Part shown: piece after piece, positions 12,625-59,681 of the stretch
How the letters are laid out: the number at the start of each line of letters is the position of its first letter
Position numbering within the stretch: position 1 is the stretch's first letter
From: Nitrospirota bacterium
Lineage (GTDB): Bacteria; Nitrospirota; UBA9217
Assembly (NCBI GenBank): GCA_963796285.1
Contig: CAWCKW010000012.1
Location: 1,184,001-1,248,000, forward strand
DNA: 64,000 nt
Direction: 5' to 3'
Notes under the pieces: generated by a model
What the model saw: the letters and a program-made list of their open reading frames with translations, nothing else
Databases searched by the model: none
What the model was told of the DNA's origin: nothing
Made by a program: the position numbers and the translations under genes

Positions 12625-14098
12625 CTAGAACCGGTAGCTGAGCATGACCTGCACGTTGGTCTGGCTGTGGGTCACCGTCGCCCCTTCAGGCGCGCCGGCC
12701 CCTGAGGTCTGCTTCACTTCCGGTGCGTACGTGAACGATGCGTCCACGGTGGCGGCGTTGCTGATCATGTAGCCAGCGCCCAGGGTAATATGGGTCTGTT
12801 CAATGGCCGGGAACAAGGCGTTCAAGTATGTATCCGGAATCGGGTTATTGGCATAATTCAACCCGGCGCGAAGCATCCAGTCAGGGCTGACCATATAACC
12901 GGCGCCGATCATGAAGACATGTTGGTCCTTCCAGTTCTGGATCAGCTCAGCATCGACGGCCTGACCACCTAAACCAAACGATGCTGCTGCCGCGTTACCC
13001 TGGTTTGCATCAGCCGTAAAGGTCATCTTGAAGCTTTTCATCACATCGGCCCAGTTGATCCATTTATAATCGAACACGAGAATCAGTTCAGGTGTTGCCT
13101 GATAAGCGACACCTGCCCCAATAGTCTGAGGCCATTGAAAATCTTTTACCTGAGATCTTACCAGTAACCGGTATCGTCGTATTGCACTTCGCCCCAGGTA
13201 GCAGGACCGACGACATTCATCGATCACCGTGGCGCCCTTCGTTTCCAGATCGCCCAACCAAGTCTTGCTGTGATAGGTAGCACCTATGGTGACGGCATCA
13301 TTAATCTTGTAGACGCCGCCGATCTTACCGGCAAATCCATCGCCCTTTGCTTCCCCGGTGAATGCGCTTTTATCGGAGAAATCAAACCGCGCCCAGTTTA
13401 AACCCGATAGGCATGGATCCGCCGCACCTGCCTGAAGGCGAAACCTAACAAACGTATTTACCATGGATCCGCTTGCAGTCCCATAGGTCTGATTGCCGCC
13501 AAAGGATGGACCCACCATATCACCAAACTGCTGAGCCATTAAGCGCCATCTTCAGATCCAAGCTTGCCCAGACGAAATCAGCCGTAGCGGCAATACTGAG
13601 GTCCTTGTTGATCTGATAGGCAAACGGTACAAGCACGCGGCCGACGCCCAGCTCGGTGCGGACCTTTTCACCCGATTTTTGGGCAAGGAATGAGTCCGCG
13701 GAGTATTCCGATCCCATCCCGCCTTGGGAAAACACACCAAGACCGTACGTCATCTGACCGGACTTTTGCACCCATCCTAATGCCGGCATGTAGTAGGCGT
13801 TCCCGGAAGATGTAGACGTCTCACCTGCAGCATCATCTTCGGCTTTGACGTGCGGCCCCAGGAAACCGAGCGCCACATCGAGCCGGTTGCCCTCGGGCAT
13901 GAGACCGAGCGTCGCGGGATTGTTCATCATCGCCGCGGTCCCGTTATCATATGCCATGGACGCGCCGCCCATGCCGGTTGCGACAGGACCATATCCCTCC
14001 ATGTTCATTCCGTTTGTTGCATACGCTGTTGTGGAAGCAATAAGTGAAACGATACCGAAGCACAACAGATACAACACACCGTACAAGCTCTTTTTCAT
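12625..14098 (-). CDS. FadL/OmpP1/TodX-family outer membrane transporter (frameshifts ~13530 and ~13200)
   Basis: Signal peptide, ATNG...GMGGA...NNPA hatch motif, C-terminal beta signal YRF. Confidence 0.9.
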
Positions 14099-29645: not shown

Positions 29646-30383
29646 TTATAGGGACAGCCCCTGCGAGATCTGTTTTTTTATGTACTCCCGAATAAACGCC
29701 CTGTCTTTCTCATCGATCTGGACGAACTTCATTCCCATCCCCGGTCGTTGGTCCTTCCCTCCGGTTTTCTGTGAGATGTACAGCACAATAGCCGTTGCAT
29801 TGATCACCTTGTCTTCGATATTCAGCGTGAGGGGAACAACTGTCTTCATTGGATCGGGCGTGAGTGTCCTTATGTAGAGACCGCCATCTGACAGCTCAAT
29901 GACGGTTTCCTGCCTCACTGATCCTCCCGGTGCTTTCTTGTCGCCCACCTCAACCTTGAAGGCCGTTTCGATCCTCACCGTATGTCTTGGTGAAGATTCA
30001 AGCGCGGCCTGGATGGTCGTATACAGCTCTTCAATTTCTACCGGCTTCTTGAAATATGCCGTGCAGCCCGCGGTCATGCATTGCTCCCTTATTCCCGGGC
30101 CGTCATCGGCGCTCTGAATGACAACGGGAACGGTCTTCAGGCGCTGGTCCTGCTTCATCGTCGTGAGCAGGCCGATACCGTTCATCTCGGGGAGCGCAAA
30201 CTCCGTTATTACGAGCGAAGGCAGAATATCGGCCATTACTTTTACGGCATCCTCCGCCGAGGCGGCGCTATGGACCGCATATTCGAGCCTTCTGAGCATC
30301 GTCCCCAGGTAAAAGCGATGGGAGGCGCTGCTGTCGACAATCAGGAGAGTGCGATTTTCTCGGTCCATTCCAGCCTCCTCCAC
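29646..30383 (-). CDS. Receiver domain plus PilZ-like domain protein
   Basis: Atypical REC (phosphosite Asp replaced by Glu, ITEFALP); RHTVR, ELSDGGL and GMGMKF PilZ motifs. Confidence 0.8.
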   Translation of the reverse strand: MEEAGMDRENRTLLIVDSSASHRFYLGTMLRRLEYAVHSAASAEDAVKVMADILPSLVITEFALPEMNGIGLLTTMKQDQRLKTVPVVIQSADDGPGIREQCMTAGCTAYFKKPVEIEELYTTIQAALESSPRHTVRIETAFKVEVGDKKAPGGSVRQETVIELSDGGLYIRTLTPDPMKTVVPLTLNIEDKVINATAIVLYISQKTGGKDQRPGMGMKFVQIDEKDRAFIREYIKKQISQGLSL

Positions 30384-35593: not shown

Positions 35594-37410
35594 CTACATC
35601 TCCACCCGCGTGACCACACCGTGGAGCTTGTTGTACGGGAGCTTGTAGAACTGAACGATGTTCGGGGTAAGCCGCTTGATGATCGAGAAGATCTGCCAGA
35701 TGATGTTGCTCGGCAGGATGTCCTCTACCCCGTAGAAGATGGTCTTCTCGTTGATCCCCGCCTCGCGCAGGATCTCCTCCACATCCGGCACCTCCATGTA
35801 GCCCGTCTGGATCTCGAAGGACCTGAGCCCGGGCGCCAGTTCTTCTTTAAAGAACCCCGTGGTGCCGAAGGGGTCCTCGCGTTTGACGATGGAGATGATG
35901 ATATTGTCCTCGTAAATGATGTTGTTCTTGAATATGGTATGGACCATGTAAGGAGGGACCTCTTTCGCGTCCCGCGCGAAAAAGAGCGCCGTCCCTTTGA
36001 TCTTGCTCATGTTCTGATAGATCTGGTTGTAGCTCGGCAGGAAGACGTCGATCGGCAGCGGCTGAAGCGCGATGTAGAGCTTCCGCTGCCCCCTTCGGTA
36101 GAGGAGAATGATCAGGAACGGGATCATCGCGATGATGATGGACCAGTATCCGCCATGAGGGATCTTATAGGTGTTGGACAGGAGGAACGTCAGGCAGACA
36201 AAGGTCACGACCAGCGAGAGCGCCGACCTGCCGAACTTCCTCTTGAGATAGAAGATCCAGGTCATGAAGATGCCGGTAAGGGTCATGGTGCCGGTCACCG
36301 CGAGGCCATACGCCGCGGCAAGATTGCTCGACTCCTGGAACTCGACCATGATGAAGATGACGGCGAACAGCAGGAACCAGTTGACGAACCCGATATAGAT
36401 CTGGGAATGCCGCTCCTCGGAGGTATATTCCACCTTGAACATGGGCATGATGCGCGTGGTGATGCCCTGGTACACGATCGAGAACATGCCGCTGATCATG
36501 GCCTGCGAGGCGATGACCGTGGCGATGATCGAGAGGAGCAGGAACGGGATGTACAGGAACTGCGCCTGGTGATAGACCATCTCGAACAGCACGTTCTTGG
36601 CCTCGGGATGCTGGATAAGGAACGCGCCCTGTCCGAGATAGTTGAGCACGAGGGCAAAGAACACGAAGTACCAGGCCCGCACGATCGGTTCGCGGCCCAG
36701 GTGCCCCATGTCGGCGTAGAGCGCCTCGCCGCCAGTAGCGCACAGGATGACCTCGGAAAGACAAAGAATCCGGTCGATGCCGTTTTCGTATCAAAAACCG
36801 GAAGGCATAGTACGGGTTCACTGCCTTGACCACGTACGGGACCTGGACGATCGAGGCCACGCCGGAGAGCGTCAAGACGGCGAACCAGACGACCATGAGC
36901 GGACCGAAGGCCCCGGCGACCCGCTCGGTACCCTTCTTCTGGATCGAGAAGAGCAGGATGGCGATCGCGCCGGCGATCACGACAAGGGACGTCTGGTTCA
37001 TTCCCTCAAACCCCCTGATCAGGAGCATACCTTCCACGGCGCTCAGGATACTGATGGCCGGCGTGATGACTCCGTCGCCGATGATGAGCGAGATGCCGAT
37101 GAAGGAGAGCATGGTGACGACCGTGGCTTGTCTGCTCGATTTGAGGAGCGGGACCAGGAGTTCGCGGAGCACGATGGTGCCGCCTTCGCCGCGTTTGCCG
37201 AGGCTCATGGCCAGCCAGGCGTACTCCACGGTAACGAGGATGATGAGCGTCCAGACGATGAGCGAGAGCACGCCGACGACGTTGTCACTCTGTCGGCTTG
37301 GTCAGCAGGAAGATGACGGTGAGCGTATAGATCGGGCTCGTGCCGATATCGCCGAACACAAGACCGAGTGACTTTATGATTCCTTTGGCTGGGGATGTTT
37401 TGTCGGGCAT
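35594..37410 (-). CDS. kup: KUP/HAK/KT potassium transporter (frameshifts ~37290, ~36780)
   Basis: LGLVFGDIGTSPIY, GEGG, GDGVITPAISILSAVEG, GHLGR, ASQAMISG and AAYGLAV. Confidence 0.95.
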
Positions 37411-37905: not shown

Positions 37906-40458
37906 TTAAGCCTGATAAATTCCGTCCAAAAAATTCCTTGCATAGCGCTTTACCGCATGGTCATCCTGGAGCACGGCATCCAGCTGACGGGTATAGGAGA
38001 TCAGCCTGCCAAGCTGATCGAGGATGGTTACCGCCTCCTCCCTGTCGATGTTCGCGAGCCGGGCAACGATCAGATCGCCTTTTGTCTTGATGTTGAAACC
38101 GTACTCGCCGAGGATCTCAGCGATGAGCTGCAGCCTCCTCGAACGCTTGGTCATGTCGGTGGCGCCGCCGGTGAACCGGAAATAAATGTGGTTGTTTCTT
38201 GTGTTCTCGCTGCAAAAGCAGTCCAGGACGATGAAATGATAGCCGAACTTCAGGCTGATGTTCGCATATTCCCGGGAAATGACGGCCATGTTCGATTCCA
38301 CGCGGCCGCCGCTGTCGGACATGATATCGGGCATACGCAGCATACTCGACATAAAATCATTGACGTTCAACGGGACTGCGTCGGAGCGCCAGATGCCGGG
38401 GCGGGTCATTCCCGTGATCAGCGCCCGAAGCGGCAGCGAAGCGATTTGCTCGGCGGTGACATGGCCGCTGGGCGAGGAATTGTCCAAGCCTCCGCCGATA
38501 TCGATGACCATGATGCCGGCGGGGATCGACAGATCCAGGTTGACGGCACCGGCCTTCACGCCGGACTGCGCGGTCTCGATAAGCTCGGCGACCGATTTCT
38601 CATGGATGAAGCGCAGAATATCATGCATGGTCTTGCATGCCTGCGGCGTAAACTCATCCCGCAGAGGATCGACCAGGTTCAGCGGCGCGATGTAGCGCAG
38701 GAGATACCTTTTTTTGCGGAACTCCAGGAGTTCTTCCATCCTTGCGGAATCGTTTCGCGCGTGCTCCACGATCTGCCTGACCAGTCCCCTCGGTAGATGG
38801 TCGCCCCTTCGTTCTCCACCTGGATGGTGATCTCCTGGCCGTGGGCAAGCAAATGCGTTGCATTGCCCGCGTTCACGACCGTTGGGATCCTGAACTCCCT
38901 GCACAAGCGCGGCCATATGGCTCGTCGGCGTTCCCGTGTCGGTGACGATCGCGGACACGTCGGTCATCACGCGGACGAAGTGGGAGGAATCGTGCCGCGC
39001 AACGAGGATAGCGCCCTTGGGGATGGAATCAAGTTCATTGATGTTCTTCAGGATGAAGACCCGGCCCGCTGCCACGCCGTTCTGCACGGCAAGCCCGCTG
39101 TTCTTCGCGAGGACCTTCGCGTCAGGCGCGCCCGGGCCCGCGGCACGAGTGCGGGTGTCATCGCCTGACAGTCTGAGCGGCCGCGACTGGAGGATGAACG
39201 CCCTCCCCTGGCTGTCGAAGGCCCACTCGATGTCCTGGGGCCTGCGAAAGTGCTTTTCGATCAGCAGCGCCAGCCGGACGAGCTCAGCGACCTGCCCTGG
39301 ATCAAGGCTCGATCGTGTTCGTTTTTCCTCCGGCGTCGCGACCGCCGTCACACCGCCTTGTTTCATCCCGATGACCATCGAGCCCTTCGTGCCGATCCTC
39401 GTCTCGACGATCTCCCGGTTGCCGGTCTTATTCACCCTGTAAAAATCAGCATCGGTCTGGCCTTCCACAACGGAAGTGCCAAGCCCCCACGTAGCATTGA
39501 TGATAAGCGTGTCACGGTTTCCCTGTTGATCGATCGAATACAGGACGCCGCTCGTATCGGCATCCACCATCACCACGCAGCCCACGGCCATTTTCATGTC
39601 ACTGAGGTCGTACCCCAGTCTTTTCTGATACATCGACGACTTTTCAGAGAATAGACTGGCGAGCACCTTCCGGTACGCCTTTTCAACTGCAGCGGTTTCG
39701 AGTGGCACATTCAGAACGGTTTCGAACTGTCCTGCGAACGAGAAGTCTCCATCCTCCTCCCCTGCACTGCTCCGCACAGCGAAGGAACACTTCCCTTTGC
39801 ACCGCGAACTGATCTTGTTGACGGCCTTGTCGATGGCGCGGTGAAGGTCGGGCGGCATCTCTCCATGCAGAATAAGCTCATGCACTTCATGCAGGGACGC
39901 CGACGGGACCGTGGCATTGTTCTGCGGTAGCCGTATCTTTTCAAAGATCCGGTTATGGCCCATGAAGGCGTCGAAGGCCCGGGTCGTTACCGCAAAGGCA
40001 TCGGGCACGTTCAGCTTCAGCGCGTTTTTGATCTCCGCGAGGTTGGAGTTCTTACCGCCGATGTCCCGCACCATATCGCCGGTAACGTGCTCATAGAAAA
40101 CGACGAGATCCTTTGCCGGGATAACGGTTTCATCGATGACATGCCTGATCCCTTCGTCGATTTCCCGGGACTTCTCTCGGAGCTGTGGATACCGGCCGTG
40201 CGTTAGCAGGTCAAAATCGCGGAGGGAGTCGTCTACGGCGGCGTGAAGGTCGGCATAGGATCGTTTGACGTACTGAATGTCGAACAGATAGTCCCCGCCA
40301 AGGGTATCACCCATGTCCGTAATGATCTCGAGCGCCCTGTTGTTATCGTCGAGGACCTCGCGGAACCGGGAAAAAAGCAGCTCGAACGAATCCCGGTTGC
40401 GGCGAACGCGCCAGAGGGTCCGGTACAGAGAGTTCAGTTTTCCGGCAAAGTTTGTCAT
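37906..40458 (-). CDS. PEP/pyruvate-binding (PPDK_N) plus phospho-His swivel domain protein (compensating frameshifts ~38790-38905)
   Basis: GGK..NL, AVRSSA..ED..SFAGQF, PQDIEWA, LQSRP and TSHMA; no C-terminal PEP-binding TIM barrel recognised. Confidence 0.85.
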   Translation of the reverse strand: MTNFAGKLNSLYRTLWRVRRNRDSFELLFSRFREVLDDNNRALEIITDMGDTLGGDYLFDIQYVKRSYADLHAAVDDSLRDFDLLTHGRYPQLREKSREIDEGIRHVIDETVIPAKDLVVFYEHVTGDMVRDIGGKNSNLAEIKNALKLNVPDAFAVTTRAFDAFMGHNRIFEKIRLPQNNATVPSASLHEVHELILHGEMPPDLHRAIDKAVNKISSRCKGKCSFAVRSSAGEEDGDFSFAGQFETVLNVPLETAAVEKAYRKVLASLFSEKSSMYQKRLGYDLSDMKMAVGCVVMVDADTSGVLYSIDQQGNRDTLIINATWGLGTSVVEGQTDADFYRVNKTGNREIVETRIGTKGSMVIGMKQGGVTAVATPEEKRTRSSLDPGQVAELVRLALLIEKHFRRPQDIEWAFDSQGRAFILQSRPLRLSGDDTRTRAAGPGAPDAKVLAKNSGLAVQNGVAAGRVFILKNINELDSIPKGAILVARHDSSHFVRVMTDVSAIVTDTGTPTSHMAALVQGVQDPNGRERGQCNAFACPRPGDHHPGGERRGDHLPRGLVRQIVEHARNDSARMEELLEFRKKRYLLRYIAPLNLVDPLRDEFTPQACKTMHDILRFIHEKSVAELIETAQSGVKAGAVNLDLSIPAGIMVIDIGGGLDNSSPSGHVTAEQIASLPLRALITGMTRPGIWRSDAVPLNVNDFMSSMLRMPDIMSDSGGRVESNMAVISREYANISLKFGYHFIVLDCFCSENTRNNHIYFRFTGGATDMTKRSRRLQLIAEILGEYGFNIKTKGDLIVARLANIDREEAVTILDQLGRLISYTRQLDAVLQDDHAVKRYARNFLDGIYQA

Positions 40459-40463
40459 GACCT

Positions 40464-40835
40464 TTAGGGCTGCTTTTCCAGCGCCCGTTTGATGGAAGCC
40501 TTCAATTCCTTTATCTTTACGGGTTTCGGGAAAAAGTCATGCACGTCCCTTCGGAGCGCCTCAATGGCCGCATCGAGGTTGGCGAAGGCCGTGATCATGA
40601 TGACCTGTGTCGCGGGATACAGGTCTTTCACGGTCTTCAGCACCTCCATCCCGTCGATCCCTTTCATTTTGTAGTCCGTTACGACAACGTCAAATTTTTC
40701 TTCCTTCAACCGCTTCAGCGCCGGCTCGGCGTTCAGAAAGGTTTCAACAATATAGCCTTCCTGCTCGAGGGACAGTTTTGACATGTCGCCCACGATCTTT
40801 TCATCGTCAATGACCATGATCTTGTGACTATTCAT
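40464..40835 (-). CDS. Single-domain response regulator
   Basis: IDDE, TDYKM, ITAF and KP. Confidence 0.93.
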   Translation of the reverse strand: MNSHKIMVIDDEKIVGDMSKLSLEQEGYIVETFLNAEPALKRLKEEKFDVVVTDYKMKGIDGMEVLKTVKDLYPATQVIMITAFANLDAAIEALRRDVHDFFPKPVKIKELKASIKRALEKQP

Positions 40836-42240
40836 TGTTCTTCTCCTCTTTATTGTACTGGGGCAGCTCTATGGTAAAGGTCGTTCCTACACCGGCCATG
40901 CTGTCCACCCTGATCTCTCCATGATGATTCTTGATGATCCCGTAACTGACCGAGAGCCCGAGTCCGGTCCCCCCCTCCCCCTTGGTGCTGAAAAAGGGAT
41001 CGAAAATATGGGGAAGAAACTCGGGCGCAATGCCCTTGCCCGTATCCGCAACGCCGATCTCGACGGAATTTCCCTTCTTTCCCGGCCGTGATGAAAGAAC
41101 GAGCCTGCCGCCGGAGGTCATGGCCTGGACCGCATTCGTGATCAGGTTCACCAGCACCTGCTGGATCTGGTGCTCATCCACGAATACATGCGGCAGGCTG
41201 TCGGCGAGGTGGATCGATGTCTCGATATTCGACACATCGATCATGTTCTGCACCAGGGTGAGCGTCTTCTGCACCACCACGTTGATGTCCGCCTCGTTCG
41301 GGTTCGCGTCCTTGGGTTTTGAAAAATCGAGCAGGTTCTTGACGATCTTCCGTATCCGCTCCGTCTCAGCATCGACCTTATTCATGAACTCGATCCGGTC
41401 ATGTTCGCCGAGTTGTGGGTAGAGTTCCGCGTAGGTCTGTGCGATCATCGATATATTGTTGAGCGGATTGGTGAGTTCATGTGCCACGCCGGCCGTCAGG
41501 ATGCCGAGGGAGGCAAGTTTCTTTGACTGGATCAGTTCTTCCTCGCGGTGGCCGAGCTCCTCTGACATGGAATTGATCGCCGTGATAACCGCACCGAGCT
41601 CATCATTGGACCGAAATCCCGCTATCTTGTTGAAGTTCCCTTCGGATATCGATTTTGCCAGCTTCTCGATCTCTCGCAGAGACCTGAGGATCTTTTGAGA
41701 AATAAAATGCCCGATAACGAGCGCGGAAAGCAGAATTACCCAGAAGGAGAAGATCAGGATGCGCTTCGAATTCAGGATAATATCGTTCACGCGGGTGCGT
41801 TCGAGGTGTGTGATGGAATCAGAATACTCCTTCAATTTCTTTCCTGCCGCGCGAATCCTCGTTTCCAGGTCAGGGTCCTGAGGATCCTTCGTGCTCGCCA
41901 CCTGGATGACGGCCGAGTAGATCTTGAGATGGGATACCAGTTTCCTGAGATCTTCCTCCCCGATCGCCCGGATAATGTCATCGCTCTCGGCCTCGATCGT
42001 TGTCATCGTCAATGCTATCTTTTCCCGGATATCCTTGAGTGCCATCCTGTCGTGGTACAGGAAAAAGTTCTTTTCCGAAAGCCGCATCTCGAGAAAGGAC
42101 GCGTTCAGGTCGTCGGCGATCTCGACGAACTTGAGTTTGGTAAGCACGAGGCTCATGTTCTGAAAGGCGAAAAAGCCGATCAGGATGATGAAGGCGCCGT
42201 TGATGGTGTTCGAGAGAATGAGTTTACGTTCAATTTTCAT
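40828..42240 (-). CDS. HAMP sensor histidine kinase (NtrB-like)
   Basis: 2 TM, HAMP, AHELTNPL, N box, DTGKG, FFSTK and GTGLGL. Confidence 0.95.
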   Translation of the reverse strand: MKIERKLILSNTINGAFIILIGFFAFQNMSLVLTKLKFVEIADDLNASFLEMRLSEKNFFLYHDRMALKDIREKIALTMTTIEAESDDIIRAIGEEDLRKLVSHLKIYSAVIQVASTKDPQDPDLETRIRAAGKKLKEYSDSITHLERTRVNDIILNSKRILIFSFWVILLSALVIGHFISQKILRSLREIEKLAKSISEGNFNKIAGFRSNDELGAVITAINSMSEELGHREEELIQSKKLASLGILTAGVAHELTNPLNNISMIAQTYAELYPQLGEHDRIEFMNKVDAETERIRKIVKNLLDFSKPKDANPNEADINVVVQKTLTLVQNMIDVSNIETSIHLADSLPHVFVDEHQIQQVLVNLITNAVQAMTSGGRLVLSSRPGKKGNSVEIGVADTGKGIAPEFLPHIFDPFFSTKGEGGTGLGLSVSYGIIKNHHGEIRVDSMAGVGTTFTIELPQYNKEEKNNE

Positions 42241-45899: not shown

Positions 45900-46670
45900 A
45901 TGGCAGCAAGCTGGCTGTTTTTACTGACCTGTAGCTTAAGCGGTGCTTTTTTATCGAGTCTTTTGGGAATAGGGGGCGCCATATTCATTATCCCTATTAT
46001 CCTGTTTTTTCAAAAGAGCGTAGGTTTGAATCTTGAAATGCATCAAATAAGCTCTCTTACCACTCTTTTCGTCTTTGTCGCGGGCGTCGTCGGTTTTTGG
46101 GCCCATGGCAGGCACTATAAGATAGAAAAAAAGCTTGTCCTCATAACCGGCAGTTGCGCGTCCATCGGGGCGCTCGCAGGAGGGATGGTGCAATTCTATC
46201 TGCCGCATAATGTGATTTTAATAACCTTCGTCGCTCTGTTGTTCCTTATCGGCGGTTTGATGATTTGGCCCATCAAGAATGAGAATACAGAGATGCCCGA
46301 TTATTCATTGATGAAAGCGGCTTTGGGTTGTGTGACTGGAGGGTTTTTGGCGGGCATGGTGGGCATAGGGGGAGGCACGATACTTGTTCCCTTTATGATC
46401 GTTTTTCTTCGTATTCCCACCAGGCCGGCCATCTCGACCGGTCTGGCCCTGGTGATGCTCGCAGGCCTTTTTGGCTTGATCGGCCGGCTGGGACATGCTT
46501 CCTCCGTACCCTGGACTTTAGGCATCCCCCTGGTGCTCGGCATTCTGCCGGGCAGTCTGCTGGGGACCTATACCAACAAGCGGATGCCTACGGCCGTTTT
46601 ACGCAAGAGTTTTGCCGTAATGATTCTGATGCTGGCTGTCCAGCAAGTCGTAAGTATTTTCACGGCATAA
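45900..46670 (+). CDS. TauE/SafE (TSUP) family exporter
   Basis: Duplicated G.GGG..I.P motifs; ~8 TM. Confidence 0.88.
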   Translation: MAASWLFLLTCSLSGAFLSSLLGIGGAIFIIPIILFFQKSVGLNLEMHQISSLTTLFVFVAGVVGFWAHGRHYKIEKKLVLITGSCASIGALAGGMVQFYLPHNVILITFVALLFLIGGLMIWPIKNENTEMPDYSLMKAALGCVTGGFLAGMVGIGGGTILVPFMIVFLRIPTRPAISTGLALVMLAGLFGLIGRLGHASSVPWTLGIPLVLGILPGSLLGTYTNKRMPTAVLRKSFAVMILMLAVQQVVSIFTA

Positions 46671-46715: not shown

Positions 46716-48329
46716 ATGTTAACGAACAGAAGGACTGTGACAAGACCTAACAGGATAAAAAAATTATTGGAGCATTGGCATGATTTCCGCCTGAAGCTTA
46801 TTCTTGAAGGTATTTTAACCGGGGCTCTTGCCGGCTTGGTCGTAGTTTGTTTCAGACTTATGCTGGGTTGGACGGGTGCGGAACTGCCTAAGCTGTTTTC
46901 CTTTCTGAAGTCAAGCGCCTTCGGCTGGACCGCGTTATGGTTTGCTTGCCTTATTGTTAGCGGCATGATTTTGGCCTGGCTGATCAAGATGGTCCCCATG
47001 TCCACCGGCAGCGGCATCCCCCAGGTAAAGGGCATTCTGGCGGGATTTTGGGGATTTGATTGGCTTAAAGTAATCGGGGCAAAGTTCGTCGGCGGTCTCT
47101 TGGGAATTGGGGCCGGCCTTTCCCTGGGCCGGGAAGGTCCTTCGGTGCAATTGGGGGCGGCCGCGGGTCAGGGGATCAGCCGGATTTTGAGACGCAGCAG
47201 CATGGAGGAAAAGTATTTACTTACCAGCGGGGCCAGCGCCGGGCTGTCGGCAGCCTTTAACGCCCCCCTGGCCGGGGTGATGTTTGCCCTGGAGGAACTG
47301 CATAAAAACTTTTCCCCGGTGGTGCTGGCCTCTGCCGTGGCCGCCTCGGTTACAGCGGATTTTGTCAGCCGCGTTGTTTTCGGGCAAAGCGCGGTATTTG
47401 ACTTTCACAATATTCCCGTGATGCCCTTTCATTATTACGTGTATGTTGTGGTCCTGGGTCTTATCGTCGGTGCTTTTGGGGTAGTGTTCAACTCGAGCCT
47501 GGTTAAATTTCAGATTTTTTACGAAAAACTGCCCTTGCTGCCGCAAAAATTAAAGCCGGCCATTCCTTTGGTAGTGGCCGGATTCCTGGGATTTGTCCTG
47601 CCCCAGGTGCTGGGCGGAGGCGACGGGTTGATTAATTCGTTGCCGCAAATGCATTACGCTCTCACCATGCTGCTGGTCATCCTTGTAGGTAAATTTTTAT
47701 TTACCATGTTAAGCTACGGCACCGGCGTCCCGGGCGGCATTTTTATGCCGCTTTTAGCAATCGGCGCTTTAAGCGGCAATGTGTACGGCGCACTTGTGGC
47801 CCGATATCTTCATGTCGACCCCATGTATGTCAGCAACTTCATCATCCTGGCCATGGCCGCATACTTCAGCGCCATTGTCAAGGCGCCCATTACCGGCAGC
47901 ATCTTGATCATGGAAATGACCGGCAACATGGAGCAGCTTTTACCGTTAATTACCGTCTGCATGTCCGCCTATATTGCCAGTGATGTGTTCAACGGCAAGC
48001 CTGTTTATGATGTTTTGATGAACCGGATGTTGGCGAAACGAAGACCGGCCCACAAGCCAAGCCCTCAGGAACATGATGAGGAAAAGCATATTTTAGAAAA
48101 AGTGGTCAGCCTGGGGGCGCCGGTTTGTAACAGAAAAATATGCGATATTGATTGGCCTGAGAACAGTCTTTTGGTGGGTATCAGGCGCGGGGACTCGGAG
48201 TTGATCCCGGCCCAGGACACCATTATTTATCCCGGGGATTACTTGATTGTGCTGTCCGGGACAGCGGTGTTTTCCCATGTGCACTCCACTATTGAGGAAC
48301 TGACCGGTGGAGAGAAAGTCTGTGCATAA
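46716..48329 (+). CDS. ClC H+/Cl- exchanger with C-terminal TrkA-C (RCK) domain
   Basis: GSGIP, GREGP, FNAP, FALEE, GIFMP and IRRG...P...I.PGD. Confidence 0.93.
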   Translation: MLTNRRTVTRPNRIKKLLEHWHDFRLKLILEGILTGALAGLVVVCFRLMLGWTGAELPKLFSFLKSSAFGWTALWFACLIVSGMILAWLIKMVPMSTGSGIPQVKGILAGFWGFDWLKVIGAKFVGGLLGIGAGLSLGREGPSVQLGAAAGQGISRILRRSSMEEKYLLTSGASAGLSAAFNAPLAGVMFALEELHKNFSPVVLASAVAASVTADFVSRVVFGQSAVFDFHNIPVMPFHYYVYVVVLGLIVGAFGVVFNSSLVKFQIFYEKLPLLPQKLKPAIPLVVAGFLGFVLPQVLGGGDGLINSLPQMHYALTMLLVILVGKFLFTMLSYGTGVPGGIFMPLLAIGALSGNVYGALVARYLHVDPMYVSNFIILAMAAYFSAIVKAPITGSILIMEMTGNMEQLLPLITVCMSAYIASDVFNGKPVYDVLMNRMLAKRRPAHKPSPQEHDEEKHILEKVVSLGAPVCNRKICDIDWPENSLLVGIRRGDSELIPAQDTIIYPGDYLIVLSGTAVFSHVHSTIEELTGGEKVCA

Positions 48330-52474: not shown

Positions 52475-53726
52475 TTACTCGGGATAGGCAATCCCTCTCG
52501 GGATTTCAGCCTGTTCCTTCCGCACGGGCCAATACCACAGCGTTCCGTCGATCACCAGGAGAAATCCGGCCGCAATAAGCCAAAGATTGAACGACGTCAG
52601 GAGGCCGAAACCGAAATAGCTTATAATGCCGATTCCTATGCTCAGGAACGAAATACCAGTGCGGATAAAGGCCAGCCCGGTCCGGGCACGGGCGTAAATG
52701 GTGCGGTAACACGCGGCGATCGTCCGCTGGGCCGCCAGGACGTTTCGTTCGCGGGCGAACACGGTCCGCACTTTGCTCGAGGGCGACGGGTACAGATAGG
52801 TACTGTAGTCCGAAAGAAAATCTCCCATTCGGGCAAGCATCGTCCCTTGGGTTTCCCTCTTGATTCCCGTGTTTTCCAGAAAATGATAATTCTCAAGGAA
52901 TTGGATAGTTGTTGCGGTAACCTCCACCAGCGTCTGGTGGCCCGGAGGCGCCATTCGGGATTTTCGAACATTCAAATATTGTGGGAAGTCCATAAAAGAA
53001 AATGACAATCCCGACTGCCAGCACCGAGAAATACAAAAAGGGGGAACTGCTCGCGTTTTTCGTCTGGAGCAGGGTATTGGAGAGCGCAATCGTGCCCAAG
53101 CCCCATCTCAGGAAAGCAAGACCGGTACGGGCACCCGCGAGGTCGGTCCGGTAGCAGGCGAGCCTCGTCCTCCAGTGGGCCATGGTATTGCGCCAGTACG
53201 CAAGTCCCGTCCGTTCCGTGCCTATCAATAAACCCGGCTTGGCATGAAGATAGTCCTGAATAAACCACTGTATATCGAAATCAAGGGTGACCCGGTACTC
53301 ATATCGTTCGGCCTTGACGTATTTTTTTATATCTTCCTTCATGGTGGGACTATCGGGGTGTCTCGCCGCGATGACCACCGTGCCGGTGTCTTCTTTGATG
53401 ACAGGCATCCACTGGTTCGTTGAAAGCGCATCAGCGCTGAGACCGGTCAGAAGCTCGGGCGGTATGGGTAGACGTTCATCATATTCAATGAATGGGCATT
53501 GATAATAGGCGGCAAGCGCCTCAAGCAACCGGTATTTGGGCACACCATATTCCGCAAGCAGAATTTTTTCGAGGTCGATCCCCCGCGCCCGAGCGACGAA
53601 CGTCGCCCCGTCAAGCGTTTGTTGGTCTAAAATCCCGCGCTCAACGAGAAAGGAGAACTCCGGGCCTTTTCGCACGCCGGCATTGGTCAGATCATTATTA
53701 TTCATGTTTAAAAGTTCACGACTCAT
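52475..53726 (-). CDS. GspE-N-like domain plus two DUF202-like membrane repeats (frameshift ~52980)
   Basis: LVERGIL...YGVP...LA.YY.CPF head; two RT.LA..RT.LA..RTGLAF.R.G + 2-TM repeats. Confidence 0.75.
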
Positions 53727-55362
53727 CTTGACTAAAAACGACCGTTCCCCATTTGTTCGTCGGTACACCGTAATCGGGAAGGGTTATCTCCATATCACCG
53801 TAGCAATAGGGAAATTGCGCTCTCATTTTTTCAGTCGGAACGATCCAATAGTACCCATCGGCGATCAACGCAAGACCGACGAAGATCATCACCGCATTAA
53901 AGAGCGTCCAGCCGACCGATGCCGTGCCGAAGTACACCATGAGGCCCGCACCGACAGAGGTAATGCTCATGCCCGTCCGGACAAATGCCAGACCTGTTCG
54001 TGTCACAGCCATAACCGAGCGCAGCCTGGCCATCACGCATCGCCGGTCCGCGAGAACGGTCCGTTCAAGAGCAAGCCCGGTGGTGGCCCATATGCCCGGC
54101 AAGTGAGATGCGCGGACCGGAGGACCGGCCTTGTCCTGTTGGGGACCGGTACGATTGTGCCGGAGCGGAAAAACCTTGTCCCATATGCTTTCCTTATTGA
54201 CAGCGTCAATCACAGACTTAAGGCTTTCTATGCCGGACCGTCTGCCGCCGAAATACCAGTAGAATCCTTCCGCAGACATCAATAGCCCAGCGACGATGAG
54301 CGATATATCGAGAATCGTCCACTTGCCGGCGTGAAACTGCCGGAGCAATCCGACGCCTAGGCCGATGAAAGCAATTCCCGTCCGCGTAAAGGCAAGCCCC
54401 GTCCGGGCACGCGCCAGCTTCGTCCTGTGGCCCGCCAGAGAGGTCCGTTCCTCTGCCATGTCCGTCCTGTCGGAGGCGAGAAACCTTCGTCTCATGACCG
54501 GAGAAAGATACTCCCACCCTGCCCGAAGCGCTTCTGCGCCCTTGACTACACCGCTGCGGTTGAAAACGGGATGCCCTTCTGCGGACATCGACTCCTCCAG
54601 CACGCATGCGCCCCAGGAAGGCTCAGTGCAAATGGAATCGATCGGTTTTTTTGCTATCCTTCGCGCCGGGAAATACCATTTGAGTCCGTCATAGGACATG
54701 ATAATGCCGACGATAAGGAGCGGCGCCTCGAAGACGGTAAAAAGTCCTATACCGAACACTCTCAGGAACAAAAGGGCAATAACGATGAAGGACACGCCGG
54801 TCCTGATAAAGGCAAGACCGGTCCTTCCCTTGGCGAATAACGTCCTATAATGAGCATAGGTTGATCGCCGGTATGCGAAATAGGTCCTCACACGCGCAAG
54901 GGGCGTTCTTCCTCCTGAGAAGGAAAACGAGGGGTTTACATCGAAATTGTGCTCGATGATGCGGATGAGATCAGCGGGAAGGGCAACGATAAAATCAATA
55001 TGGCCAACTCCGAGGGTCTTTTTTATATCGTCGATTACCCGTGGATCGTCGGGGCGGCACGCAATCACTTCGGCCCGGTCCTCTCTGATCGATCGCGGAA
55101 ACCAGAGATGCTTTTTCAGCTTCTCCATGTCCAAACGGATGATCAGGAGATAGGCAGTTATAACGCTTTCATCATATTCTACGAAGGGCAGCCCGTAGTA
55201 TTCGGACAGGCAGAAAAGGAGCTCGTGCTTGGGAACCCCGTTCTCTATCAGCTTCTCTTCAAGCAGGGAACCCGATGTTGCGGATTCACGAATGAGCCGA
55301 TCCAGCTCATCGCCGGAGAGAATGCCTCTTTTTATCAGCCTTTCAAATTTTTTGCGTTCCAT
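53716..55362 (-). CDS. GspE-N-like domain plus three DUF202-like membrane repeats
   Basis: LIKRGIL...GVP...LSEYYGLPFV head; three RTGLAF.RTG + 2-TM repeats. Confidence 0.78.
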   Translation of the reverse strand: MERKKFERLIKRGILSGDELDRLIRESATSGSLLEEKLIENGVPKHELLFCLSEYYGLPFVEYDESVITAYLLIIRLDMEKLKKHLWFPRSIREDRAEVIACRPDDPRVIDDIKKTLGVGHIDFIVALPADLIRIIEHNFDVNPSFSFSGGRTPLARVRTYFAYRRSTYAHYRTLFAKGRTGLAFIRTGVSFIVIALLFLRVFGIGLFTVFEAPLLIVGIIMSYDGLKWYFPARRIAKKPIDSICTEPSWGACVLEESMSAEGHPVFNRSGVVKGAEALRAGWEYLSPVMRRRFLASDRTDMAEERTSLAGHRTKLARARTGLAFTRTGIAFIGLGVGLLRQFHAGKWTILDISLIVAGLLMSAEGFYWYFGGRRSGIESLKSVIDAVNKESIWDKVFPLRHNRTGPQQDKAGPPVRASHLPGIWATTGLALERTVLADRRCVMARLRSVMAVTRTGLAFVRTGMSITSVGAGLMVYFGTASVGWTLFNAVMIFVGLALIADGYYWIVPTEKMRAQFPYCYGDMEITLPDYGVPTNKWGTVVFSQDES

Positions 55363-55603
55363 AGGGTTATCATACCATGCGGAGGGAAACAGCCTGACGG
55401 GAACAGCATTTACATGACCGGGTTCAAGAGCAAAAAGTGATGGAGGCGTTTTACGCCTCCATCACAAGCACAACACGGGGATATATGACAAAACGTCTCA
55501 TTCATCTTCCGGCAATTTATGCTTCGAGTTTTTCCTCGTGATGGACCTTCATCCTTTTGATCCACTGTTCCCTTCCCTGCGTTTCTCCAAATATCCGTGC
55601 GGA

Positions 55604-55786
55604 TCAAACTTTTGCTTTTTCTTTTCGGTCCTGCTCAATATTGCCGGGTTTGTCTTGCAAGCCCTCTTTAAATCCCCGGATCGCTTTTCCAAGACCTTCC
55701 CCGAGCGCGGGAAGCCTGTTGGGCCCGAAGATCACAAGGGCAATGATCAGAATGACCACCATTTCGGGAAATCCAAGTCCACCCAT
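55604..55786 (-). CDS. tatA: Twin-arginine translocase TatA/E subunit
   Basis: GLGFPE..IL.IAL.IFGP.RLP.LG..LGK.IRGFK; AGGAG RBS. Confidence 0.93.
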   Translation of the reverse strand: MGGLGFPEMVVILIIALVIFGPNRLPALGEGLGKAIRGFKEGLQDKPGNIEQDRKEKAKV

Positions 55787-55860: not shown

Positions 55861-56283
55861 TTATACATTCACTACGTACACGGGACAGGGCGCCAGGTTA
55901 ATGACCTTTTCGACAATATGGTCCCCGAACAGCCTGCTCAAGATGCCCTTTTTCTTTTTCGACCCCATGATGATGAGGTCGCACCGTTCCTCTTCCGCTA
56001 CCTCAACGATCCTCTGCGAGACATCACCCTGTTCCAGTCTCGTCTTGATCAGCGCGCCTTCGGCCTTCGCCATTTCGCCAATCTCTGAAACAGCCTTTGC
56101 CCCGCCGTCATCCAGGACATCATTGAGGTTCTTGATCCCGGTCAGGTCGAGATCGCCGTCGAACGGACGGAGGACCTTCACGACCGTGATCCAGGTCTTT
56201 TCATCCTTGGCCAGTTTGATCCCCTGTTCGAGAACTTCTTTGTGCCCATTCAAGGCAATAAGGATTTTTCTATACCCTTTCAT
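55861..56283 (-). CDS. Universal stress protein
   Basis: YRKILIA, DLIIMG and APCPVYVV. Confidence 0.9.
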   Translation of the reverse strand: MKGYRKILIALNGHKEVLEQGIKLAKDEKTWITVVKVLRPFDGDLDLTGIKNLNDVLDDGGAKAVSEIGEMAKAEGALIKTRLEQGDVSQRIVEVAEEERCDLIIMGSKKKKGILSRLFGDHIVEKVINLAPCPVYVVNV

Positions 56284-56422
56284 GTCGCTACGCTCCATTG
56301 ATAATTGAAAATTGGAAATTATAAATTTGAGATTGAAAATTGAGAGATGCATTTGAGATAATTTTACATTTTCCAATTTCCATTCTTCAATTTCCAATTC
56401 GACAGCTCCTCTGTCGCACGCA

Positions 56423-57289
56423 CTACCTTACTATCAGTATCGGACGGGCGGCGCTGGCTATGATCCGCTCTGCCGTGCTGCCCATGATCGCCTTGTTCAT
56501 GCCGCGCCAGCCGTGGGTCCCCATGATGATCAGATCGTTCTTGAACTTGTCGGCGATCTCCACGATCTTCTCGCTCGCGTGGCCTTCCTGGACCACTGCC
56601 TTGATCTGCACTCCCTGTTCAGCGGCCAACTTCTTCGCGGCATCGGCGATCTTTTCGGCCTCCTGGAACAGGCTCTTGGTGATGGACTCGGTCTTGTAAA
56701 AGTCCACCATCTCCTCGTAGCGCGGGATCACGTAGAGGACGGTTATCTCGCCTCCATCGAGCTTTGACAGTTCGCAGGCGCGCATCAGCGCTTTTTTACT
56801 GGAGTCTGACCCGTCAAACGGGACCAGAAGGGAGCTGTATGTTCCCGTGCATCTGGTGCACTCCTTGTTCACCACCAGCACATCGCAGGGCGAGTTCAGG
56901 ATGACCTGCGAAGTCACACTGCCCATGAGCAGCCGCTTGAGCCCTTTTCTGCCGTAGGTGCCCAGGGCGATCAGGTCTGCCTTGTTGGTTTCAGCCGTTT
57001 CAACGATGACCTCGGGCGGCTCGCCCTCGCAGATCATCGACTCAACACTGCCGTTCAGTCCGAACTCATCATGAGATCTTCTTTTTTGCATCAAGGCAGA
57101 CGGCATGTGCCGAACTCGAACCGCTTTTCCATCTGCGATGGCAGGATGGCGAACTCTTCCTGGTCGAAATATACCGCATGGATCAGGAAGAGTCTTCCCC
57201 CCGTGCACTTTCACCCATCGGGAAGCCTCTTTCAGCGCGGCCTTGCTCGATAGCGACTCGTCATAGCCTACAACAATGGAGTTATACAT
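56423..57289 (-). CDS. Tandem universal stress protein (compensating frameshifts ~57070-57200)
   Basis: Two USP domains: G..G..G...GSVT...CDVLVV and GTHG..G...GS.AE. Confidence 0.92.
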   Translation of the reverse strand: MYNSIVVGYDESLSSKAALKEASRWVKVHGGKTLPDPCGIFRPGRVRHPAIADGKAVRVRHMPSALMQKRRSHDEFGLNGSVESMICEGEPPEVIVETAETNKADLIALGTYGRKGLKRLLMGSVTSQVILNSPCDVLVVNKECTRCTGTYSSLLVPFDGSDSSKKALMRACELSKLDGGEITVLYVIPRYEEMVDFYKTESITKSLFQEAEKIADAAKKLAAEQGVQIKAVVQEGHASEKIVEIADKFKNDLIIMGTHGWRGMNKAIMGSTAERIIASAARPILIVR

Positions 57290-58096
57290 CAGTGAGAGCC
57301 TCCGCCTTTTTTGAACACCATGCTTACGCCGAAACCCGCGCCAAGCGCGACCCCGATGGAGAGAAAACCGTAGATCGCCGGGCTGTTCTTTGCCATGGTT
57401 GCCAGGGTCTTGACCATGCCGACCTGCTCAACGTTGACCTTTGACTGGGCCTGTTCCACGACCTTATTGTCCTTCACGGCATAGACCGAGACAAGGTAAT
57501 CTCCCGGCTGGGCCTGGTAGGGCCAATCGGTGAGGATGATAGTATTCCTGTTGTCCTTCGGCGTTCATGGTCGTCTCGATCTTCCCGGATGACGTCGTGT
57601 ATACTTTGGACGATTCCTTGTACTTGACGAACTCATCGAACCATTTCGCCTTCTCTTCCTCGTTCGCGACCGGGGTTATCTCCACATGTTTCGCAAGCGC
57701 GGGATAGCCGATCACATACTTCTCCATCTCTTCACGGCTCAGGATGTCTTCCACCTTCTTCGTGCTGAAGACCTCGTAGAAGTTGGGGGTCTGCTCGAAC
57801 TTCAGCTGGCCCACATTCATCCAGAGCACTCCCCCGACCTTGCCCTTCTGCTTCAATACCTGGTGCCCTTCGGGCGACGTTATCTTGATGATCAGGTCCG
57901 CGCCGGGATCCGATATGCCCCGCACGCTCACGGTGCTGCCGTGATAAAAAAAGTCGATGGTGATATGGTCGTGATTCGCCTTGGCAGTGAGCATCGCAAA
58001 AGCGTTATTGGAAATTGCAAATTGGAAAATGCAAATTGCAAAGGTGAAAGCGAGAAAAATATTGAACTTTGAACTTTGAACTTTGAACTTTTTCAT
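57289..58096 (-). CDS. TIGR02186-like exported/membrane protein partnering a TSUP transporter (frameshift ~57540)
   Basis: Signal peptide, I.IDFFYHG, KGKVGGVLWMN and C-terminal TM YG..SI.VAL.AG. Confidence 0.8.
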
Positions 58097-58098
58097 TA

Positions 58099-59026
58099 TT
58101 AATGTCCTCCGACCTGGCTGAGAAGTAATGACGGGGTCAACGTGACCTCGAAAACGATCTTGACGGTCACGACGAGCACGATCACCGCGAGAAGGATCTT
58201 GAGCTGCTCGGCCTTGAGCTTCCTGCCGAACACGGCGCCGATCTGCGCCCCAACGGTCGAACCCAGGAGCAGGAGCACGGCGAGCAGGAAGTCCACGCTG
58301 TGATTGGTGTATGCCTGGAGGAACGTGACCTCGATGCAGGTGAACAGGATCTGGAACAGGCTCGTTCCGACCACCACGTGCATCGGCATCCTGAGCATGT
58401 ACACCATGATCGGCACCATCAGGAACCCGCCGCCCACGCCCATGATGGCGGCAAGAATGCCGACAAACCCGCCAAGTACGATCGGGACGAACACGGAATG
58501 GGTGATGCCCGACTTCTCGAAGCGGGTCTGGAGCGGCAGGGACTTCAGGAACCTGCCCATTGCCGACTCCTTTTCTTCCTTCGCTTCTTCTCCCGGCCGC
58601 ATTCTTTTTCTTCCTCATGCTCTGGAGGCTCTCGATGAACATGTAGACGCCGACGATGCCGAGCATGAGGATATAGGTAATCTTGATCACGAAATCGGCA
58701 TTGCCCATGGCATGGAGCAGCTTGATTGCCTGGACGCCGACGATGCCGCCGATAAATCCGCCGACAAGGAGATACAGTCCCATCTTGAAGTCCACGTTGC
58801 CGACCTTCCAGTGGGCATAGGTGCCGGACGTGGATGCCGCCACGATCTGGTTGGAATCAGTTGCCGCGGCAACCGTCGACGGGATGCCGAACATGATGAG
58901 AAGCGGCGTCAAAAGAAATCCGCCGCCTACGCCGAAGAGACCGGAAAGCAGTCCCACGGCCAGCCCGAGCCCCACGGGGATCAGGATGTTGATGCTGGTC
59001 AATGCTACAGGTAGATACAGGTACAT
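58099..59026 (-). CDS. TauE/SafE (TSUP) family transporter (frameshift ~58600)
   Basis: MYLYLPVA start, GVGGGFL twice and VVVGTSLFQ. Confidence 0.9.
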
Positions 59027-59124
59027 TACTGGCACTCCTTTTCATTTATTATTTTTTACGCAACGTTCACGGAGGTTTAAAGCTTGACTCATTAACCTTT
59101 AACTTTTATTGTTTGAATGTTTTT

Positions 59125-59665: not shown

Positions 59666-59681
59666 TGCAACCACAGTGCCA
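59666..59681 (-). promoter_or_regulatory. Sigma54 -24/-12 promoter
   Basis: TGGCACTGTGGTTGCA on the minus strand, a consensus match ~45 nt before ATG 59622. Confidence 0.9.

Follow-up and report, generated by a model that had tools for sequence, protein, structure and literature searches.

To our knowledge, the only role known for the large DUF202 family is that of the pore in the eukaryotic polyphosphate polymerase, and its bacterial members have no assigned function. The membrane domain of this polymerase, VTC, is PF02656 according to PMC12526157, and PMC9911596 describes a 3:1:1 pentamer of 15 helices, three per subunit, in which the five first transmembrane helices form a pore lined by Vtc1 K24, by R31, which marks the constriction, and by the equivalent residues of the other subunits. 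Escherichia coli YidH appears in PMC10299036 as a candidate from a D-alanine export screen that gave no export in a transport assay. Here we describe two overlapping genes, A and B, of an uncultured sulfur-cycle Nitrospirota, which encode partner membrane proteins with five arginine-striped helical hairpins between them. Both are located in a 64,000-nucleotide stretch of a Nitrospirota bacterium (GenBank assembly GCA_963796285.1, contig CAWCKW010000012.1, positions 1,184,001 to 1,248,000), referred to throughout as the window, at the following positions:

53716..55362, reverse strand: gene A, an MshEN-like head and three DUF202 hairpin units, 548 amino acids (open reading frame, Pfam, AlphaFold2 model)
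54928..55362, reverse strand: A head, residues 1-145, MshEN/GSPII fold without the RLG motifs for cyclic di-GMP (c-di-GMP) (VIA, Foldseek, NCBIfam)
54652..54909, reverse strand: A unit 1, residues 152-237; rungs R152, 159, 166, 173, 180 and 187 (plus R201); helices 152-203 and 209-237
54196..54489, reverse strand: A unit 2, residues 292-389; rungs R292, 299, 306, 313, 320 and 327 (plus R341); helices 288-342 and 349-389
53815..54084, reverse strand: A unit 3, residues 427-516; rungs R434, 441, 448, 455 and 462; helices 422-478 and 483-516
52475..53726, reverse strand: gene B, an MshEN-like head and two DUF202 units, in two frames in the assembly (intact form P0121, 416 amino acids)
53241..53726, reverse strand: B head, residues 1-162 (Pfam MshEN, 39.5 bits; VIA)
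52961..53213, reverse strand: B unit 1, containing the extra base; intact-form residues 172-255; rungs R172, 179, 186, 193, 200 and 207
52508..52768, reverse strand: B unit 2, intact-form residues 320-406; rungs R320, 327, 334, 341, 348 and 355
52983..52985, no strand assigned: GGG run (CCC on the gene strand) with one extra base that splits B (contigs of public runs, P0121)

Literature pairing DUF202 or PF02656 with MshEN, T2SSE_N, GSPII or PF05157 was not found in the searchable literature, in which the A/B family is undescribed. Apparent mentions of DUF202 in PMC10434189 proved to be DUF2023 and DUF2027, which are unrelated.

Units, conservation and pairing of A and B

An earlier reading of this DNA, made from the letters alone (the sequence-only reading), had described two paralogous genes overlapping by 11 nucleotides, each with an MshEN-like head, one with three and the other with two repeats of DUF202 type, and had proposed that they form a VTC-like channel for anions or polyphosphate. 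The coordinates and anatomy were right: the A stop codon ends at 53716 and the B start codon occupies 53726-53724, an overlap of 11 nucleotides. Against Pfam cut-offs of 23.1 bits for MshEN (PF05157) and 23.4 bits for DUF202 (PF02656), A scored 41.5 bits for MshEN (residues 56-141) and 61.3 bits for DUF202 over three stretches, the best being residues 313-371 in unit 2. Intact B scored 39.3 bits for MshEN and 31.4 bits for DUF202, the latter over two stretches, so that the family assignment and the division into three and two repeats both hold. As broken in the window, the 291-amino-acid open reading frame of the first piece of B scored 39.5 bits for MshEN and 14.0 bits for DUF202, and the 204-amino-acid frame of the second piece 21.3 bits for DUF202, both DUF202 scores being under the cut-off when the pieces are taken alone.

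All five units follow one plan, in which a heptad ladder R-T-x-(L/M/F)-A-x-x runs into a terminal RTGLAF.R(T/W)G and then two hydrophobic helices. The ladder ending was found in all five, as had been claimed, and the closing motif, given earlier as usually G..WY, is [DE]G..W[YI] in four of the five, with YGLPQYL in its place in B unit 1. The ladders are longer than the four to five rungs first reported, with 6, 6 and 5 rungs in A and 6 and 6 in B, which amounts to 29 arginines at heptad position a. Across aligned homologues, 96 of A and 109 of B, arginine is 100% conserved at all 29 positions, and the threonine (b), leucine, methionine or phenylalanine (d) and alanine (e) of the heptad are likewise conserved. 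Where the first membrane helix begins, every unit carries the signature R-x-x-L-A-x-x-R-T-x-L-A-x-x-R-T, which does not vary among homologues, and an extra arginine two heptads further along is conserved in A units 1 and 2 (R201, 100%; R341, 98%). Together, the five 35-residue stalks hold 35 lysines and arginines vs 8 aspartates and glutamates. In AlphaFold2 models of A (predicted local distance difference test 80.9, predicted template modelling score 0.69) and B (73.0 and 0.53), each ladder runs without a break into its first membrane helix, the two making up a single helix of 52-57 residues, and a return helix of 27-41 residues comes next. The periplasmic loops measure ∼5-10 residues. Heptad geometry places positions a, e, b and d within ∼160 degrees of the helical wheel, so the arginines would centre the conserved face.

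In the window, B changes frame at the GGG run at 52983-52985 (forward-strand letters): its first piece begins at 53726, and its second ends with the stop codon at 52475-52477. One letter is missing at 52983 in the contigs of all three public metagenome runs that span the site, drawn from two studies (X1, depth 20.6; X3, 9.8; X4, 4.7; the best of them is possibly the window's own sample), and P0121 differs from the window at 1 of 247 residues of the first piece and 0 of 168 of the second. Because all three spanning runs lack the extra base and an intact 416-amino-acid copy exists, the split is probably an assembly error, and B was treated as an intact protein of that length. Its two frames could otherwise mark a pseudogene and a pair in decay in this organism, which is extremely unlikely in light of those contigs and of an intact protein a single residue away; kup, FadL and TauE/Alph_Pro_TM in the window are also split in the same way, fitting an indel-prone assembly.

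Homologues, counted at E ≤ 0.001 among the candidates scored, numbered 950 for A and 1329 for B. The best 120 of each were 62-99% identical to A and 66-91% identical to B, with nearly constant lengths and no names other than DUF202 or YidH; with more than 900 homologues of each and strict positional conservation, the pair is far beyond chance. Full-length A occurred in 13 of the 41 related genomes searched (broken in G004), with B directly after it in 13 of 13, and within the genus the pair was present in five of nine genomes. A wider survey took one genome per species across 185,579 species and recovered 223 stretches encoding a relative, the best 80 of which provide the locus counts given here. 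These are metagenome-assembled genomes labelled Nitrospirota, Thermodesulfovibrionales, Sulfobium or Dissulfurispiraceae, and seven of the 80 are labelled Desulfocapsaceae, delta- or betaproteobacteria.

Units per locus were counted with a custom single-unit profile, and the total was 3+2 in 73 of the 80 loci, 3+3+2 in four (L062, L063, L072 and L086), disturbed by a broken second A in one (L060) and cut by a contig end in two; neither A nor B stood alone in any of the 80. The 3+2 arrangement was also found in 11 of 11 intact relatives. Among the 73 loci with 3+2, the nearest B start codon overlaps the A stop by 4-17 nucleotides in 51 and lies at most 16 nucleotides past it in 20 more. The proposal of five units had come with the expectation that homologues would neither vary in repeat total nor occur singly. 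The 3+2 count and the pairing bear this out, but four or five of the 80 loci have a second A, and to that extent totals do vary. Where two A copies are kept (3+3+2), they share 68-71% identity and each is orthologous across loci, which points to a single old duplication with both copies retained. A tree of 56 single units placed the five unit positions in five groups, each on one side of a branch (support at least 100/99 for A2, A3 and B1, 84/98 for A1 and 56/50 for B2); the set of five is therefore old, and each place is specialised.

Other arrangements of the unit were sought by comparing a single-unit profile with 1.84 billion representatives, which gave 2756 matches at E ≤ 0.001, of which 31 reached E ≤ 1e-30. 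Of the best 150 representatives, by the criterion adopted here for a full unit, 13 had three full units, 11 had two, 97 had one and 29 had none. The protein P0348 (476 amino acids) has five signature-plus-two-helix units in a single chain that ends just past the fifth; a cluster look-up returned only DUF202 clusters for it (scores 0.77-0.79), and P0371 is an apparent fragment of a P0348-like protein. P0262, P0267 and P0288 have a single DUF202 unit behind a very long R-T-x-L-A-x-x ladder, of ∼17 rungs in P0262. A protein of this long-ladder type is fused to a receiver domain in P0269, and one ladder-DUF202 record, P0346, runs on into a PPDK_N/PEP-utilizers enzyme; a link between ladder DUF202 proteins and the PEP-utilizing enzyme family thus recurs outside the A/B clade (P0269, P0346). 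Four single-repeat MshEN proteins (P0273, P0277, P0290 and P0293) were rejected as a separate architecture, since they read as truncated or frameshifted fragments of A.

Register with the VTC pore and a putative conduit

The ladders were placed relative to VTC by way of the genome's one canonical single-unit DUF202 protein, which is encoded far from the window:

G000:C12:466926-467168 (L101 319-732), reverse strand: canonical DUF202 protein (profile match, 77.6 bits)

This 137-amino-acid protein aligns with the repeat profile at an hhalign probability of 85% (E 5.9e-6) and has an extra C-terminal hydrophobic stretch beyond the aligned part. Its five PDB matches are all Vtc1 or Vtc4 chains (E 0.29-1.7), aligning with Vtc1 residues 23-49. 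Through both alignments, Vtc1 K24 maps to rung 4, R31 to rung 5 (the arginine of RTGLAF) and N38 to rung 6, in agreement with the VTC-type basic pore helix of the sequence-only reading, with the Vtc1 alignment at E about 0.3. On this mapping, the ladder appears to be the register that lines the VTC pore, with three to four more rungs on the cytoplasmic side.

We propose that A and B are two subunits of one inner-membrane complex that would together supply five DUF202 hairpins, each consisting of a long inner helix, in which the cytoplasmic arginine stalk continues into the first membrane helix, and an outer return helix. Analogy with the solved VTC channel would place the five inner helices side by side around a central axis, with the 29 invariant arginines, flanked by the conserved b, d and e residues, facing that axis. 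The result would be a positively charged tube ∼40-50 Å long leading to a narrow membrane pore, able to bind or conduct an anionic cargo, with the two heads and three inter-unit linkers at its cytoplasmic mouth for docking or gating. Such a five-unit, VTC-like conduit for anions is the best-supported mechanism, and one that we hold tentatively, at slightly under an even chance; the 1:1 assembly, the ring geometry, the inward arginines and transport itself are all predicted by this analogy.

Several results weigh against such a conduit. The alignment to Vtc1 that carries the rung mapping is weak, at E about 0.3, and no VTC chain was matched by the repeat profile among PDB sequences at E up to 10 or appeared among the Foldseek and VIA matches listed for the A and B models, although such listings leave room for the VTC family. 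The models give each unit two membrane helices vs three in VTC and YidH-type proteins, so that an A/B ring would have 10 helices vs 15 in VTC, and B modelled alone packs as a generic four-helix bundle. The encoded total is not always five, given the four 3+3+2 loci and the fifth with a broken second A, and a fused A-B protein of at least 960 amino acids was not found, which is weak evidence either way. Finally, every heptad position is conserved, outward c, f and g included; the stalk therefore has further contacts that a five-helix tube leaves unexplained.

The sole PDB match of the repeat profile was a TetR regulator (E 0.064). Weak support for the conduit comes from structure matches of the A membrane region to parts of designed circular repeat proteins and helical barrels (8e0o_B, Z 12.5; 8qai_B, Z 10.4), below the tool's noise level for helical folds. 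TehA/SLAC1-type matches over the three A hairpins (3m71_A, Z 7.4, root-mean-square deviation 3.8 over 164 residues; 7wnq_A, Z 7.1; 8gw6_A, Z 6.9), which in the anion channel homologue TehA cover three of its five hairpins, likewise fall below the chance level for such folds.

The heads, described earlier as a ∼150-residue T2SSE_N/MshEN-like region with no ATPase and a degenerate RLG motif, were borne out on each point. In addition to Pfam scores above the cut-off, VIA aligned the A head with the N domain of c-di-GMP-bound MshE (5htl_B) at Z 14.7 and a root-mean-square deviation of 3.1 over 138 residues, and the B head at Z 15.0 over model residues 20-160; both heads matched XpsE-N at Z 13-13.6, and Foldseek matched the A head to PilF GSPII-B at E 3.1e-5. 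No ATPase family was among the Pfam matches of A or B, and the PilB model TIGR02538 scored 17.5 bits vs a cut-off of 675, in the head region only. In PMC5013675, c-di-GMP binding by MshEN is defined through two 24-residue RLG...Q motifs, and RLG is missing at both motif places in A, in B and in the consensus of the 96 A and 109 B homologues. A device gated by c-di-GMP, with heads that bind the nucleotide as MshE does, would suit this fold, so close to the c-di-GMP-bound domain, and a genome with 23 GGDEF matches. It is highly unlikely, however, given the missing motifs, scores of 15.4 and 13.2 bits vs a cut-off of 38 for the NCBIfam c-di-GMP motif (NF053729), and the position of A and B as the two weakest of nine MshEN matches in the genome. 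The heads may instead be docking or gating modules and not canonical c-di-GMP receptors. Elsewhere in the window, a receiver-PilZ protein (29646-30383, reverse strand) is a likely c-di-GMP effector.

Neighbouring genes, cargo and rival explanations

The surroundings of the pair contain the following features:

55369..55377, reverse strand: TGgTATGAT, an extended -10-like element 6 nucleotides before the A ATG (55362), a candidate local promoter that would give a leaderless mRNA
55437..55465, reverse strand: strong terminator-like hairpin after tatA, 13 pairs (8 G-C) and a T tail, dividing A-B from the upstream USP genes
55604-55786, reverse strand: tatA, inserted between the USP genes and A
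55861-56397 and 56423-57289: USP genes
45900-46670 and within 57464-59035: TauE genes
59666..59681, reverse strand: exact sigma-54 -24/-12 consensus TGGCAC-N5-TTGCA heading the cluster, the sole exact match in the window
46716-48329: ClC gene
37906-40458, reverse strand: phosphoenolpyruvate (PEP)-synthase-like protein, with a receiver (40464-40835) and a HAMP histidine kinase (40828-42240)
35594-37271: kup, split in two open reading frames

In relatives, the order is an unannotated 165-amino-acid protein, TauE, Alph_Pro_TM, a double USP, USP, A, B, a HAMP histidine kinase, a receiver and a PEP-synthase-like protein of ∼860 amino acids, often with a Tll0287-type kinase and a sigma-54 activator next. 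Across the 80 loci, the histidine kinase was present in 51, the receiver in 43 and the PEP-synthase-like dikinase downstream in 50. The window has the same genes, but a block of bPH, MFS, TauE, ClC, CBS, kinase and activator genes lies between B and the histidine kinase, so that the last three genes, directly after B in most relatives, are ∼10 kb from it. The dikinase-like protein combines an ATP-grasp and a swivel His domain, matches PEP synthase only over residues 116-520, and showed no match among solved or curated families over its last 330 residues. The kup, ClC, TauE and USP neighbours named in the sequence-only reading are all real genes at the coordinates above.

The extended -10 that the same reading assigned to the pair is present 6 nucleotides before the start codon; it is not conserved, since of the 68 loci examined 15 have a -10-like hexamer at that place and one has the extended form, and in relatives the pair lies inside a cluster headed by a sigma-54 site. 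In the window, that site stands just ahead of a 165-185-amino-acid open reading frame that opens the TauE/Alph_Pro_TM/USP/USP cluster, and 20 of the 55 loci that extend 5 kb or more upstream have an equivalent. Only the exact site was used, as the pattern with up to two mismatches was no commoner than chance (24 found vs 29.8 expected). In the relative L049, A begins only 14 nucleotides after a USP gene, with no tatA between them.

The assembly has an indel-prone look at other places in the window. FadL (12625-14098) and kup (35594-37271) each form two open reading frames, TauE is fused out of frame to Alph_Pro_TM at 57464-59035, and TGT, NadA and an aldo-keto reductase are shorter than their profiles.

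The polyphosphate cargo of the sequence-only reading is disfavoured. PPK1 (PF02503) and PPK2 (PF03976) were found in none of the 13 genomes bearing A and B, and in one and three, respectively, of all 41 searched; the organism's own genome, 96% complete, has neither PP_kinase_C (PF13090) nor the VTC catalytic domain (PF09359), and its one Ppx-GppA gene is far from the pair. With no PPK1, PPK2 or VTC catalytic domain found, ordinary PPK-made polyphosphate is an unlikely cargo. The conserved neighbours, namely TauE, Alph_Pro_TM, USP, the histidine kinase, the receiver, the PEP-synthase-like dikinase and the sigma-54 promoter, suggest instead a cargo under stress control, either an oxyanion or a phosphorylated product.

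A bacterial VTC-like channel passing polyphosphate across the inner membrane would account for the Pfam module shared with the VTC pore, the count of five, the VTC pore residues in the register of the ladder and a long arginine-lined tube suited to a linear polyanion. The dikinase found downstream, linked elsewhere to ladder DUF202 proteins (P0269, P0346), could in principle and speculatively make a phosphorylated polymer. This explanation is nonetheless improbable, considering the missing kinases and catalytic domains, the distant Ppx-GppA gene and the lack of a Pfam match to SPX or TTM domains in A or B. In a variant that we consider very improbable, A and B would do the translocating in a bacterial counterpart of VTC, and the dikinase, controlled by the two-component system, would supply an anionic phosphorylated compound, perhaps a polymer, for export through the arginine stalk; if so, organisms without PPK1 and PPK2 would have a new route to make and move a phosphate-rich polyanion.

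Conduction itself may be the wrong premise. A membrane sensor or scaffold that conducts nothing, whose arginine stalks bind an anionic ligand or dock the kinase, receiver and dikinase to relay a signal, is unlikely in our estimate, and it draws on the histidine kinases and receivers at 51 and 43 of the 80 loci, the ladder relatives fused to a receiver (P0269) or running into a dikinase (P0346), the conservation of outward stalk positions and periplasmic loops so short that little is exposed outside. MshEN/GSPII heads also dock partners in the solved complexes PilB-N/PilZ (7lkm/7lko) and EpsE-N/EpsL (2bh1). What speaks for the conduit over the scaffold is that, in the only relatives of the module with solved structures, these residues line a pore, and that conserved arginines also occur inside the first membrane helix and at its far end (R187, R201, R327 and R341), where a purely cytoplasmic scaffold would have no need of them. 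A conduit of another composition would make the sum of three and two coincidental: A and B could form separate oligomers, or more than five units could assemble, as in A2B2 with ten or in a complex of A, A' and B. Four loci do keep two A genes and one B, for eight units, single-unit ladder proteins must homo-oligomerise in some number, and the oligomeric state of bacterial DUF202 proteins was not found in the searchable literature. Against this, which we judge quite unlikely, stand the lack of any genome or locus with A or B alone, the overlapping or abutting frames, the five distinct and positionally conserved unit types, and the natural single chain with exactly five units in P0348.

Significance and comparison with known systems

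The A/B pair is a bacterial form of DUF202 whose module number is set by the structure of its genes (3+2). The VTC-type basic pore-lining residues are multiplied to 29 invariant arginines, and partner genes, those for sensor kinases and a dikinase-like enzyme among them, accompany the pair. Were the five-unit conduit real, five-fold assembly would be ancestral to DUF202, the pair would offer a tractable prokaryotic model of anion passage through VTC-type pores, and a new anionic cargo would come to light in sulfur-cycling Nitrospirota. MshEN-type heads that do not bind c-di-GMP would also gain a second output beside secretion ATPases and glycosyltransferases.

Two channel types resemble the proposed conduit in design only, without sequence relation. 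In TehA and SLAC1, a single chain with five tandem helical hairpins makes up the anion pore, and CorA, which was not among the structure matches listed, assembles from five subunits of two helices each, the pore helix extending into a long cytoplasmic stalk. The heads have the same fold as the MshEN/GSPII domains of MshE, PilB, PilF and GspE/XpsE (Z 13-15, ∼138 residues; Pfam above the cut-off), but are not followed by a secretion ATPase and lack RLG in both 24-residue motifs. In this loss they resemble XpsE-N, a non-binder according to the figure 2 legend of PMC5013675.

Within DUF202, the bacterial YidH-type proteins (single unit, ∼115-140 amino acids) share the signature and first two helices with the A/B units; they have one unit, three helices and two to three rungs, and no head. 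The long-ladder proteins P0262, P0267, P0288 and P0269 share the heptad and hairpin, with links to receiver and PPDK_N domains; unlike in A and B, each chain has a single unit with many more rungs and no MshEN head. VTC (three Vtc1, Vtc3 or Vtc2, and Vtc4; PDB 7ytj, 8i6v and 9umg) has PF02656 in common with A and B, and its basic residues spaced i/i+7 (Vtc1 K24 and R31) are in register with rungs 4 and 5. The two differ in that A and B distribute their modules over two chains where VTC uses five, with two membrane helices per module where VTC has three, and that MshEN heads take the place of the SPX and TTM domains, with no catalytic domain. The inner helix of A and B is also longer than that of VTC by three to four arginine rungs, which would form the cytoplasmic stalk. 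Five modules make up each VTC channel, their first helices lining the pore, and five modules are what A and B together encode.

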